12,579 bases of DNA from a virus (IMGVR_UViG_2703718805_000010); one strand, 5' to 3'. Shown: positions 2,672 to 7,763, counted from the stretch's first letter. Translations and numbers: made by a program. Notes: generated by a model not told the origin, from the sequence alone.

Positions 2672-3796
2672 TCAGGCTGCTTGACTATTCTTACTGATGT
2701 TATTCTTATACCGTCCCTGCAAAACTCCATACACATATTGTGCGATTTTTGCCGCAAATAGCGGTGGAACAGCATTCCCGATCTGCTTTGCAATCTCAGT
2801 TTTTGAACCGGTAAAAATGAAATTATCAGGAAAAGACATTAATCTCGCTGCCTCACGATGAGTTATTGGCCGATCCTCTTCCGGATGTAAATATCGCCCT
2901 TTCTCCGGTTTGAAAAACTCAGTACGAATCGTTACTGAAGGTCTGTCCCACCACAGACGTCCAAACAAATCGGTCCCTCCAGATTTCTTTTTTAGCCAGC
3001 ACGCCGGGGTTATATCAGGTCTTTTTTTCTGTAAATCGAAACGGTTACCTCCTGGTGGAACCGCTTTATATCGCTCCAGAGAAACAGGTGTGGGATTACG
3101 CCCAAAATGTAAGTTCAGCGGAGGAAGTTCATTACGAATATCAGTTCCAACAGGAGCAGGTAAGTCACCAATTGCATCACGCGTACAGACCCATTCAGGC
3201 AAAGCGACATCCTTATCAGGGGAACGATGCGTTGGTGCTGGCGGGAACGCCGGAATACTATGCACATCGAAGAGTTCTCGTTTGATACCGATTGCTATCG
3301 TTCGTTTTCTTGTCTGAGGTACTCCATAGTCAGCAGTATTCAACACCATTGGATTAAGCAGAATAAAGCCCATGGATTTCGCTCTAAACGTAATGTCCGC
3401 AAACTCATCGCTTATCAGCAATCCGGGGACATTTTCCATGACGAACATACAAGCCCTTGAACGCTCAATGACATCCATATAAGGCTCCCACAATGCTCTT
3501 CGGTGATCACCATAACGATTCTTATTCAATAAACTGAATCCCTGACACGGGGGGCCACCTATGACCACATCAGCCTCAGGAACAGTATTGCTGGATGCCC
3601 ACTCCTCAATATTTGCCTGAACTCCATGCAAACCAAAATTGGCATTGTAGGTATTTATAGCTGCAGCATTATTATCAATAGCAAGGATACTTTCAAAGTA
3701 GTCAGACATCTCTCCATGAAGAAAACCATAAGATAATCCACCTGCCCCACAAAAGAGGTCTATCACTCTGAATTTATTTAATTCTTTCATCCGCAT
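2672..3796 (-). CDS. DNA (cytosine-5)-methyltransferase
   Basis: 374 aa with canonical C5-MTase motifs in order: motif I DLFCGAGGLSYGF, motif IV GGPPCQGFS, motif VI ENVPGL, motif VIII QTRKR, motif X GNAVPP. ATG at 3796 with GAGG SD 7 nt upstream. Confidence 0.9.
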   Translation of the reverse strand: MRMKELNKFRVIDLFCGAGGLSYGFLHGEMSDYFESILAIDNNAAAINTYNANFGLHGVQANIEEWASSNTVPEADVVIGGPPCQGFSLLNKNRYGDHRRALWEPYMDVIERSRACMFVMENVPGLLISDEFADITFRAKSMGFILLNPMVLNTADYGVPQTRKRTIAIGIKRELFDVHSIPAFPPAPTHRSPDKDVALPEWVCTRDAIGDLPAPVGTDIRNELPPLNLHFGRNPTPVSLERYKAVPPGGNRFDLQKKRPDITPACWLKKKSGGTDLFGRLWWDRPSVTIRTEFFKPEKGRYLHPEEDRPITHREAARLMSFPDNFIFTGSKTEIAKQIGNAVPPLFAAKIAQYVYGVLQGRYKNNISKNSQAA

Positions 3797-3974
3797 CCAT
3801 ATGCCTCAGATTAATGTTGAGCGTCTTACAGGACGCGTAATGTTAACTGGGGCTTTCTCTATCTGCCTTTTGGTGTTCATGCCTGAGGCAGACAGCCTCA
3901 GGCACCCGCAGCAATTCTACTTAACTCACGTCACCTCGCCAATATGAAATCAATCAGAAAGGTGATCCATAAAA

Positions 3975-4661
3975 TCACTCCTTCTCTTCTTTTCCGTAGT
4001 GGAGTTGGCCAATTTTGATAAGAGGGCGTCCCTGAGATTTGCGGTGTAGATTGGTATCGCGCAGAGAATACACACAGCCACAATATTCCTGCTGATAGAA
4101 TTTTTCGCGCTTGCTGATTTCAATCATACGGGACGAGCCGCCCTGCTTGCGCCAGTTATAATCCCAGTACACCATACCCGGATAATGCGCAACAGCTCGC
4201 CGCCCACACTCGTTAACCTGCTGCATATTTTTCCAGCGTGAAATGCCCAGTGAACTGCTGATCACACTGAAACCATTTTCAGCAGCGTACAACGCTGTCC
4301 GCTCAAAACGCATGTCAAAACACATGGTACAACGGATCCCCCTCTCAGGCTCCCATTCCATTCCTTTGGCACGTTCAAACCAGTTGTCGGTGTCGTAATC
4401 AGCATCGATAAACGGCACGCCGTGTTGTTCAGCAAAGCGAATATTTTCATCCTTACGAATTAAATACTCTTTCTGAGGATGAATGTTCGGGTTGTAGAAA
4501 AAGATGGTGTAGTCGATTCCCGAGGCCTGAAGCGCCTCCATCACTTCACCGGAACATGGAGCACAGCAAGAGTGCAGTAGTAGTTTGTTTGCCCCGTTTG
4601 GGAGCTCCAATTTAGGCCGTTTGAAATCAGCAATAGTCATAAATATTTTTATTGGGGTCAT
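3975..4661 (-). CDS. queH: QueH-family (DUF208) epoxyqueuosine reductase homologue
   Basis: 228-aa ORF with [28 protein letters not shown] and YCGCVYS blocks, which I recall as conserved blocks of B12-independent QueH. Start may be 4661 or the in-frame ATG at 4640; neither has a strong SD. Confidence 0.7.
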
Positions 4662-6047: not shown

Positions 6048-6794
6048 TTACTTCACAACCCTCATATTGCTGACATTTGGACGCCAGCTATCCCAGTTAA
6101 ACGTCACCCATCGACCACCGCTCATGGTCATCCGGTCCATAATCCTCTCACCAAGAAGCGTGCTCATTGCGGCATGATTCAGGTTTGTTAACATCCCGAC
6201 ACTGCACAGTGATGCTGTCCGGCGATCAATTATCTGGTGTAATACCACCTGCTCGTTTTTCGTCTCCCGCTGAACGCCTATTTCATCCAGGACCAGCAAA
6301 TCAACCCCGCAAAGCTCCTGTAAAAATTTTTCCCCGGATTTGCCGTTGTCGTAGCTGTCATGCAACACGCTCATGACGTCAGACACGGTGACGATAATCA
6401 CGCTTCTCCCCTTCACCATCAGCCGGTTGCCCATCGCCGCTGCAAGGTGATTTTTCCCGGTGCCGGTTTTACCGCTGAACACAAAATTCGTGCACCCGGT
6501 CATCAGTTCGTCAGCTATGGATTTGGCCTGGCTCAGCGCGTATTTTTGCCCGTCGTTCTGCACCTGATAATTTGCAAACGAGCATTTGCTGTGCAGAGGC
6601 TGGATGCCCGAACGATTCAGGATTTTTTCCACCCGCAACTGGCGATTCTGGCGGTTAATCTCCTCGCTGCGTTTTCGTCCTTCAGCAAGTTGCCATTCCC
6701 GCCACTCCTCCACCGTCCGGTACGGTGGAACCGACCCCTGTGGTGCAAGTCTGCGAATACGTTCAAGAACCCCAACTGCCGCAATGTTTTTCAT
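6048..6794 (-). CDS. DnaC-like helicase loader (AAA+ ATPase), phage replication protein
   Basis: 248 aa, collinear with recalled E. coli DnaC: Walker A FVFSGKTGTGKNHLAAAMGNRL, Walker B DLLVLDEIGVQ, GMLTNLN, GERIMDRM, WVTFNWDSWR. ATG at 6794 lies 6 nt after the O-like stop. Confidence 0.9.
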   Translation of the reverse strand: MKNIAAVGVLERIRRLAPQGSVPPYRTVEEWREWQLAEGRKRSEEINRQNRQLRVEKILNRSGIQPLHSKCSFANYQVQNDGQKYALSQAKSIADELMTGCTNFVFSGKTGTGKNHLAAAMGNRLMVKGRSVIIVTVSDVMSVLHDSYDNGKSGEKFLQELCGVDLLVLDEIGVQRETKNEQVVLHQIIDRRTASLCSVGMLTNLNHAAMSTLLGERIMDRMTMSGGRWVTFNWDSWRPNVSNMRVVK

Positions 6795-6800
6795 GACACG

Positions 6801-7763
6801 TCACCCCCTGAATCCCGGCGGTATTTCAGTGTCCGGTTCAGAAATGTGATTCACGCAACGCTGCGCAGGCGAACGCCCCAGGCGGATAACCAGTTCATCC
6901 CATTTTTCCCGGAGTTTTGCCGGACTCATGATGTTTTTTACCCAGAACGAATCCCGCTGGAGACGCCCAAACATTTCACAAATTTGTCTGTGAGTTCTGC
7001 CATCCAGCATCCGCATTGTGCGAACGTCATTGGCCCATGCTGTCCAGTTGGGTTCTTTCGGTCTAGTGATCTCGCCATCATAGCTGGCCGCCTGCTCGTA
7101 AAGACTCACGATTCGTCCCCAGATCCACTGTGCGCACACCAAATCTTCCTGACTTCCCCACTGGCGTTTTTTCGCACTGAACACAACCGCGTCAGGGTGT
7201 CGGGTTAAAAAATCCTGTTCAGCCGTCTGCGGGTCCGGTTGCGAAGCGTCCGGACAAGAAGATCTTTTATCTGACGGATCAGGTTTTAATACTGACGGAT
7301 CGGGGTCAATCATCGGCCCCCTAATCGGCAGTTTTTTATCAACAGTTGATCCATCAAAATTTGACGGGTCAACCGTTGAGGGGTCAATATTTGACGGGTC
7401 AACTGTTAACGGGTCATTTTTTGCCGGGCTAATTTTTCTTTTCGGTTTATATGACTCACGCGCCGCCGCCGCAGCTGCTTCGAGTTTTTCCACATTAAGC
7501 CGATAGATATTGCTTACATTACGCCCACCGACCTTACGCTCTTCCTTCGTCAGCCAGCCCTCTTTCGCCAGTTCTGCAATAGCCGATTTCACTGTGGATT
7601 CACTTCTTGCACCGATCTGACGCCGGATAGTTTCAATGGCAGGCCATGACACGCCCTCGTCATTGCTGTAGTCTGCAAGACGGGCCATAACCGCCACCCT
7701 GGATAAGATCATGCCGGTGAAGGCGCACCCTTCCCAGACAAGACCATGAAGCTTGCTGCTCAT
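6801..7763 (-). CDS. replication initiation protein (lambda O-like functional analogue) with internal repeat linker
   Basis: ATG at 7763 preceded by a GGGGG run; the track start at 7778 is GTG. N-terminal HTH-like domain (RVAVMARLADYSNDEGVSWPAIETIRRQIGARSESTVKSAIAELAKEGWL), then a repeat linker DPLTVDPSNIDPSTVDPSNFDGSTVD, then a C-terminal domain. Position upstream of the DnaC-like gene fits. Confidence 0.7.
   Translation of the reverse strand: MSSKLHGLVWEGCAFTGMILSRVAVMARLADYSNDEGVSWPAIETIRRQIGARSESTVKSAIAELAKEGWLTKEERKVGGRNVSNIYRLNVEKLEAAAAAARESYKPKRKISPAKNDPLTVDPSNIDPSTVDPSNFDGSTVDKKLPIRGPMIDPDPSVLKPDPSDKRSSCPDASQPDPQTAEQDFLTRHPDAVVFSAKKRQWGSQEDLVCAQWIWGRIVSLYEQAASYDGEITRPKEPNWTAWANDVRTMRMLDGRTHRQICEMFGRLQRDSFWVKNIMSPAKLREKWDELVIRLGRSPAQRCVNHISEPDTEIPPGFRG
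7271..7416. repeat. iteron-like direct repeats inside the O-like gene (candidate phage replication origin)
   Basis: TGACGGATC at 7272..7280 and 7293..7301; TGACGGGTCAAC at 7362..7373 and 7392..7403; GGGTCAAT at 7303..7310 and 7381..7388; GGGTCA at 7411..7416. The arms TTGAC/GTCAA are inverted repeats. The repeats encode the VDPS peptide repeats, as lambda ori iterons lie inside O. Confidence 0.55.

Follow-up and report, generated by a model that had tools for sequence, protein, structure and literature searches.

The 12,579-nucleotide stretch IMGVR_UViG_2703718805_000010, called the window throughout, is a lambdoid prophage of Escherichia coli with the gene order cI, cro, cII-like, initiator and DnaC-like, as in lambda. 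Its initiator gene, found at 99 % identity or more in 1085 of 5426 complete E. coli genomes, contains a tandem array of palindromes, an A-rich tract and a dyad within the part that encodes the linker of the protein. Taken together, sequence comparisons suggest that these three elements are a candidate lambda-type prophage replication origin inside the initiator gene, a reading to which we assign a probability of roughly 0.78. An earlier inspection of the same DNA (the original prediction) had described an iteron-like repeat array at this place and likened it to lambda. The initiator and the elements in question are the following, with positions counted from the first letter of the window:

6801 to 7763, minus strand: initiator gene, 320 aa (open reading frame and translation; same coding sequence annotated in RefSeq; PHROG 391; domain layout from AlphaFold2)
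7449 to 7763, minus strand: N-terminal winged-helix domain, codons 1-105, presumed iteron reader (Pfam HTH_36; AlphaFold2)
7339 to 7428, no strand: proposed iterons, a tandem array of 5-6 units with a 15-bp period (repeat finding; Tandem Repeats Finder)
7391 to 7402, no strand: palindromic iteron core TTGACCCGTCAA (same motif and 15-bp phasing in relatives)
7376 to 7387, no strand: palindromic iteron core TTGACCCCTCAA, given for the sense strand (same motif in relatives)
7361 to 7372, no strand: palindromic iteron core TTGACCCGTCAA (same motif in relatives)
7346 to 7357, no strand: weaker iteron core TTGATGGATCAA (outer half-sites retained, centre differs)
7256 to 7309, no strand: tract that is A-rich on the sense strand, proposed unwinding region, promoter-distal of the array
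7233 to 7255, no strand: dyad GTCCGG-N11-CCGGAC, an inverted repeat beyond the tract, where the lambda origin has its palindrome
6864 to 7307, minus strand: codons 153-300, matching the C-terminal half of lambda O by homology (BLASTP)
6804 to 6863, minus strand: DnaT-like C-terminal 20 residues QRCVNHISEPDTEIPPGFRG (phmmer against PDB chains)

From its N-terminus on, the encoded protein comprises a winged helix, a linker predicted to be disordered, a C-terminal domain related to lambda O and a tail resembling DnaT; an AlphaFold2 prediction with 32 homologues gives the domain layout. Residues 108-174 of the linker are predicted to be disordered (predicted local distance difference test, pLDDT, below 50) and coincide with the array and the A-rich tract; array, tract and dyad all fall within the predicted disordered linker (codons ~108-177), followed by a helical, folded C-domain at residues 178-297 (pLDDT 72-91). 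Met151, preceded by a GGGGG run, was considered as an internal start and rejected, the run being part of a degenerate iteron unit and the methionine missing in most family members.

The repeats fall into two classes. As originally predicted, TGACGG(A/G)TC is present in exactly four copies in the window, all on the plus strand (7272, 7293, 7362 and 7392), while shuffled windows hold 0.15 on average and reached four in 0 of 200 cases. The predicted spacing of 21-30 bp holds for the outer gaps of 21 and 30 bp, but the middle gap measures 69 bp, and the four copies do not form one array: they are split between the 15-bp array and a pair of GATCCGTCAG repeats. Tandem Repeats Finder describes the array with a period of 15 and 5.2 copies or with a period of 30 (score 101), alternate units reading TGACGGGTC. 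On the sense strand, the unit is (A/G)TTGACCC(G/C)TCAA(A/C)nn, and the cores are 12-bp palindromes of the form TTGAC-SS-GTCAA, in agreement with the inverted TTGAC/GTCAA arms noted earlier; four palindromic cores and degenerate flanking units follow each other at 15-bp spacing. The array covers initiator codons of about 112-145, where translation gives ...NDPLT VDPSN IDPST VDPSN FDGST VDKK... and, further on, DPDPSVLKPDPSDK, in agreement with the VDPS(N/T) peptide repeat reported before. The A-rich tract (GC 0.375-0.40) holds the two GATCCGTCAG repeats (listed also as CTGACGGATC), which span 7271-7280 and 7292-7301 with an offset of 21 bp, as well as three GATC sites (7261, 7277 and 7298) and, at its end, the half-site GGGGTCAA (7302-7309). 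The predicted limits of 7271-7416 lie inside DNA that is under constraint, yet the constrained stretch is wider and spans about 7233 to 7428.

The DNA repeats exceed the regularity that the peptide requires. When synonymous codons were redrawn for the same peptide in 100,000 trials, 0.27 copies of TTGAN4TCAA were expected and four were observed (p = 1e-5, four occurring in 1 of 100,000 trials), and the two observed GATCCGTCAG copies compare with 0.07 expected (p = 9e-4, 0.09 % of trials). That resampling almost never regenerates the motifs argues against a low-complexity protein linker of (V/I)DPS(N/T) units, grown by replication slippage and with a functionless DNA repeat, an explanation that can appeal to the predicted disorder at this location.

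Comparison with homologues bears on the same point. A contig scan with one genome per species yielded 71 loci from about 25 enterobacterial genera, 61 of them with the full gene. Nothing could be learned from a scan of IMG/VR, in which all loci found had 99-100 % protein identity. The N-domain, a periodic array of 5 residues or 15 bp and a conserved 'GGDPSVxSKxDPSDKK' segment were found in all 61 full-gene homologues, and in none of the 61 does the first GATC of the tract vary. Array deletions of exactly 5, 10 or 15 residues (1-3 units) separate E. coli relatives of 88-92 % identity, one of which lacks 7 residues (21 bp) of the GATCCGTCAG-repeat element. Both the 5-residue periodicity of the peptide in all homologues and a copy number that differs between close relatives by exact multiples of 5 residues would also be expected of a linker grown by slippage.

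The choice of codons is not what such a linker predicts. Among 27 non-redundant homologues, we determined the share of sequences with the commonest codon at conserved-residue columns. This top-codon fraction reached 0.90 in the A-rich tract flanking the array (16 columns), compared with 0.53 for the 60 columns of the N-domain and 0.42 for the C-terminal part (Mann-Whitney p = 5e-8), and the synonymous sites of the tract are near-invariant among the 61 homologues. In the array, 224 units of the majority type TCTGACnCnTCAAAA from 50 loci use TCT (170) or TCC (13) and never AGY for the first serine, TCA (191) or TCG (23) for the second serine and AAA for lysine in 151 of 151 cases; outside the array, the same genes use TCT and TCA for only 8 % and 16 % of their serines and AAA for 61 % of their lysines. 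Since the middle codon of the units varies freely, the units are old and their synonymous sites have nonetheless stayed fixed over about 25 genera. In the clade of the window (Edwardsiella, Erwinia, Mixta and Morganella), the units read TTGACCCCTCAA or its reverse complement TTGAGGGGTCAA in strict 15-bp phasing, and their orientation sets the peptide, DPS/DPP in one direction and EGS/EGL in the other. Because the units occur in both orientations, it is the palindrome that is conserved and not the peptide, a pattern that would be expected from a symmetric dimer reading duplex DNA. Set against these observations, a slippage-grown linker with a functionless DNA repeat is very improbable.

Two further array forms were seen at codons of about 100-190. 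Loci from Tatumella, Citrobacter and a metagenome-assembled genome (L147, L146 and L148) carry 30-bp units of 10 residues, for example SEPQGPKSGL or FEPPVFRATSGL, and an Edwardsiella locus (L085) has a higher-order period of 45 bp, which suggests block duplications of iterons.

At the dyad, 73.5 % of the cells in an alignment of 26 homologues are paired, compared with 60.3 % after shuffling (reached in 0 of 500) and 20-39 % in slid controls. Eight of the ten pairs have changed on both sides, i.e. in a compensatory manner, while the protein sequence across the dyad is variable. In members from Proteus, Providencia and Symbiopectobacterium (L093, L094 and L117), the dyad region instead carries GAATTCTGACG(A/C)AT(C/T)C, which resembles the palindrome of lambda and phi80 (in its GAATTCTGACGAATCC version). 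These codon and pairing statistics show selection at the DNA level on array, tract and dyad alike. Compensatory changes would be equally expected of an RNA stem, and the dyad could thus belong to a hairpin or structured segment of the mRNA that affects translation or decay. However, no Rfam family matches the region, the short palindromes are found in both directions, as is usual where a dimer recognizes duplex DNA, the A-rich tract is without a predicted pairing partner, and lambda and phi80 hold equivalent DNA elements in a defined origin. We therefore consider a function at the RNA level hardly credible, less so than any other explanation weighed here.

Promoter-like and terminator-like sites were likewise not found in the region and, as with Rfam families, leave its conservation unexplained. 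The opposite strand has no open reading frame of at least 50 aa across 7230-7430. A 282-aa open reading frame at 6360-7208 (plus strand) lies antisense to both the initiator C-domain and the DnaC-like gene and is open in the plasmid-labelled record NZ_CP148542.1, too. It is probably a mechanical reading frame; it ends before the origin region and so leaves the synonymous constraint unexplained.

The two halves of the initiator have different affinities. Over its whole length (residues 1-320 against profile positions 1-298), it matches PHROG 391, 'replication initiation O-like', with an E-value of 4.2e-115. In BLASTP, residues 153-300 are 35 % identical to lambda O over 148 residues (E 5e-26), and residues 183-304 are 36 % identical to phi80 gp15 (E 4e-26). 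The N-domain, predicted with H-H-H-wing topology at a pLDDT of 74-89, matches Pfam HTH_36 with 27.9 bits (cut-off 25) and, below threshold, DnaD_N. A Foldseek search with it returned only generic winged helices of the MarR/ArsR/PadR type (E of 4e-3 or higher), and when the N-domain alone served as a protein query, most matches were fragments. Since its N-domain is HTH_36 and not Phage_rep_O, the initiator is an analogue or a mosaic and not an orthologue of lambda O throughout.

The last 20 residues, QRCVNHISEPDTEIPPGFRG, are identical to the C-terminal 20 of E. coli DnaT at 14 of 20 positions (9zbt_D/2ru8); phmmer matches the tail to the PDB chains 6aep, 2ru8 and 9zbt with E-values of about 1e-4, and the initiator has a weak NCBIfam match to DnaT. 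This hints that the initiator borrows the partner-binding tail of DnaT. A 2026 preprimosome paper is silent on the role of this C-terminal tail. Many family members end in (I/V)P.GFRG despite differing C-domains, and the DnaT-like tail probably explains why phage records carry the annotation 'primosomal protein I'.

That O-type genes contain iterons is textbook knowledge. According to published work, every family of lambdoid initiators has its own intragenic iterons (PMC8022706: P22, L, lambda; PMC7466680: lambda, Stx phages). The lambda origin has four iterons of 19 bp together with an AT-rich tract and a palindrome, Stx phages having six-iteron versions, and its annotated iterons (39034-39118) correspond to O codons 117-145, the same place as the array described here. 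In lambda and in the case proposed here, the origin lies in the middle of a gene in the pR operon, every repeat is itself an inverted repeat, and repeats, A-rich tract (with an A-rich sense strand) and dyad follow in the same order and polarity relative to pR. Residue 153, where the homology to the C-terminal half of O sets in, marks the boundary between iterons and AT tract, and in lambda and Stx phages, as here, added repeat units lengthen the protein (PMC7466680). The differences are that the N-domain of O is of the Phage_rep_O type and not HTH_36, that the sites measure 12 bp at 15-bp spacing here and 18-19 bp at about 20-24 bp in lambda, that the AT tract is weaker here and includes two conserved GATC-bearing repeats, that a DnaC-like AAA+ loader takes the downstream place of P, and that a DnaT-like tail ends the protein. 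The likeness to lambda that had been drawn in the original prediction therefore holds for the iteron position, the O-homologous C-terminal half and the selection at the DNA level, but not for the N-domain.

The second well-defined relative is gene 15 of phi80, in which four gp15-binding sites are annotated (JX871397) at codons of about 122-147, between the N- and C-domains. Besides the related C-domain, phi80 and the window have part of the tract in common, namely CAGTATTAAAA and AAAAGATCTTC followed by GTCCG, and the tract of the window aligns with the AT-rich tracts of both lambda and phi80. Phage phi80 differs in its Phage_rep_O N-domain, its lambda-P-like partner gp14 and its sites, which are 15-16 bp long, recur every 21 bp and have the motif TTCCCGAAAACGGGAA. 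Closest in the N-domain are SfII, SfIV, phiP27, Yersinia YeP1-3 and enterobacterial prophages (PHROG 391), which belong to the same N-domain family (40-77 % identity) and share the 15-bp array architecture and the conserved tract GGGGATCCGTCAGTAAAnTCAAAACAnGATCCATCAGATAAAA. Most of this group use the unit TCTGACnCnTCAAAA (SDxSK) instead of the TTGACCCSTCAA (V/I-DPS-N/T) of the window, and their C-terminal domains and downstream partners vary. Relatives of the SfII, SfIV and phiP27 type are annotated as 'replication protein O' or 'primosomal protein I', and neither the genome record nor the genome paper of SfIV marks an origin.

In theta plasmids such as pSC101, R6K, P1, RK2 and F, the iterons are directly repeated units of about 17-22 bp in helical phase, which mostly lie between genes and together with DnaA boxes. 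They resemble the present locus, as it is read here, in having repeated sites for a winged-helix initiator beside an easily melted tract, but here the repeats are palindromes with a 15-bp period in a coding region, without a significant DnaA box. Pfam gives no match to a Rep-family (Rep_3-type) initiator, and the locus does not have the make-up of a plasmid-type iteron origin of the Rep_3, pi or TrfA class.

The arrangement is also modular. Up to about 7268, the window and phages of the mEp460 type have the dyad and the C-domain in common, with 86 % of the nucleotides identical. The N-domain of these phages is of a third kind and comes with palindromic repeats of its own, four or five copies of 23 bp, and with an AT-rich triplet repeat at the equivalent position. 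In mEp460_ev081 (L159, 1961-2129), the Pfam-negative N-domain is accompanied by 23-bp repeats CATCnGGnCATTTTGACCnGATG and three 12-bp AT-rich repeats, which look like another undescribed iteron set. Within the family of the window, N-domain clades correspond to iteron variants, which fits the classical picture of the N-terminal half of O and the iterons as the specificity unit, a principle found for P22, L and lambda in PMC8022706 and for lambda and Stx phages in PMC7466680.

The repeats could, on the other hand, be functional duplex DNA targets of a different kind, such as autoregulatory operators, sites for other phage or host proteins or a recombination hot spot at a mosaic joint, and a joint with mEp460-type phages does lie at about 7268. 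Palindromes and constraint at the DNA level show only that some factor reads the DNA. The position and order of the elements, however, match the origins of lambda and phi80, the protein homology starts at the same boundary, and there is no promoter-like site nearby to control. A second set of operators is lacking, the motif being absent from the rest of the window. A role outside replication initiation is therefore improbable in our view.

Two DnaA-box-like sites, TTATCAACA at 7336-7344 (plus strand, between array and tract) and TTTTCCACA at 7486-7494, were rejected, each having one mismatch and not being conserved in relatives; DnaA-box matches in the window are at chance level (6 versus 3.1 expected). 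The region has no match to the consensus of integration host factor and a single two-mismatch match (7261-7273) to the oriC-type 13-mers (GATCTnTTnTTTT), of which the window holds 8 versus 5.8 expected. Four GATC sites lie in 7261-7351, but synonymous resampling of the same peptide averages 5.7, and the cluster is therefore not significant in itself. Its only informative aspect is the family-wide invariance of GAT at two Asp codons.

Several points weigh against a lambda-type origin and limit our confidence in it. The initiator has no match to Pfam Phage_rep_O (PF04492; the N-domain of lambda O, phi80 gp15 and P22 gp18) at an E-value of 0.01 or below, while phi80 gp15 scores 88 bits in the same type of scan. 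Lambda, phi80 and mEp460 have 19-bp iterons at about 20-24 bp, compared with 12 bp at 15 bp here; the 15-bp spacing is without studied precedent among the lambdoid origins compared, and the occupancy of every unit is only presumed. The adjoining AT-rich element that the original prediction proposed to look for is present, conserved and aligned with the tracts of lambda and phi80, but it is only moderately AT-rich (about 60-66 %) and, at the 96th-99th percentile of duplex instability, is not the least stable DNA of the window. The correspondence of N-domain clade and iteron type is weak evidence because the two are physically adjacent in the gene and thus not independent. In the literature and in sequence records we found the principle, but no description of an origin for this N-domain family. 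Finally, NZ_CP148542.1 (L156) is a 15,977-bp circle labelled as a plasmid and made up, in a lambda-dv-like manner, only of the immunity, replication, nin and lysis region of the prophage. As a candidate for a lambda-dv-like plasmid it was rejected, since the reading frames of the initiator and of ydaT are frameshifted, and it is thus no evidence of autonomous replication; the record may be an assembly artefact or reflect long-read errors. On balance, we still favour a lambda-type origin in which the compact palindromic iteron is a new type and the intragenic arrangement is the one already known from lambda.

If array, tract and dyad act as such an origin, transcription from pR would yield the initiator after derepression. 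Dimers of its N-terminal winged helix would then bind the TTGAC-SS-GTCAA palindromes and form a compact, O-some-like complex. Neighbouring sites are about 1.4 helical turns apart and would thus lie on roughly opposite faces of the helix. Negative supercoiling together with transcription through the site would melt the adjoining A-rich tract (7256-7309), in which the GATCCGTCAG repeats possibly serve as weaker initiator sites. The lambda-O-like C-domain, possibly with the DnaT-like tail, would bring in the host DnaB via the DnaC-like loader of the phage. The VDPSN/IDPST peptide would be a side effect of the DNA sites, and the disorder of the linker would explain why it is tolerated.

A distinct origin architecture, and not merely a re-skinned lambda origin, is a more adventurous variant that we think doubtful, though it has several pointers in the sequence. 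Dimers facing opposite sides would imply a complex unlike the wrapped O-some of lambda. The invariant first GATC could tie firing to Dam methylation or SeqA, and the compensatory maintenance of the dyad may be a further pointer. In addition, the DnaT-like tail and the DnaC-like loader might recruit the helicase via the PriA-PriB-DnaT interface of the restart primosome and not by a hijack of the lambda-P type.

The remaining genes of the replication and immunity region are arranged as follows:

6048 to 6794, minus strand: DnaC/IstB-like ATPase, putative helicase loader, directly downstream of the initiator in the same operon
7786 to 8211, minus strand: cII-like/YdaT-family gene
8208 to 8423, minus strand: cro
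8473 to 9189, divergent to the minus-strand operon: LexA-like cI repressor

The DnaC-like gene matches Pfam IstB_IS21, NCBIfam PRK12377 (504 bits) and DnaC (299 bits), and PHROG 50. Genes for DUF1627, DUF977 and QueH are also on the minus strand of the window; the latter one, a prophage-borne epoxyqueuosine reductase gene at 3975-4661, lies in the nin-like region. The window also carries dicB, ydfABC, the DicF antisense RNA (10699-10750, plus strand, 75.8 bits) and hok/sok, with the sok antitoxin RNA at 3727-3907 (minus strand) beside hokD. Both RNAs are ordinary cargo of Qin/Rac-type prophages.

Taken together, the analysis proposes a concrete origin at about 7233-7428, along with a consensus for its iterons. 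The initiator gene of this replication module is present at 99 % identity or more in over a thousand complete E. coli genomes, and related genes in SfII, SfIV, phiP27 and many enterobacterial prophages are labelled only 'helix-turn-helix protein' or, wrongly, 'primosomal protein I'. The comparison also shows that lambdoid initiators exchange a block of N-domain, iterons and AT tract against a block of dyad and C-domain. The array is a clear case of dual coding, in which the function of the DNA constrains a coding region: the putative binding sites determine what the disordered linker reads, and inverting one of them even turns DPS into EGS. The signature at synonymous sites may be used by annotation pipelines for the detection of intragenic origins.

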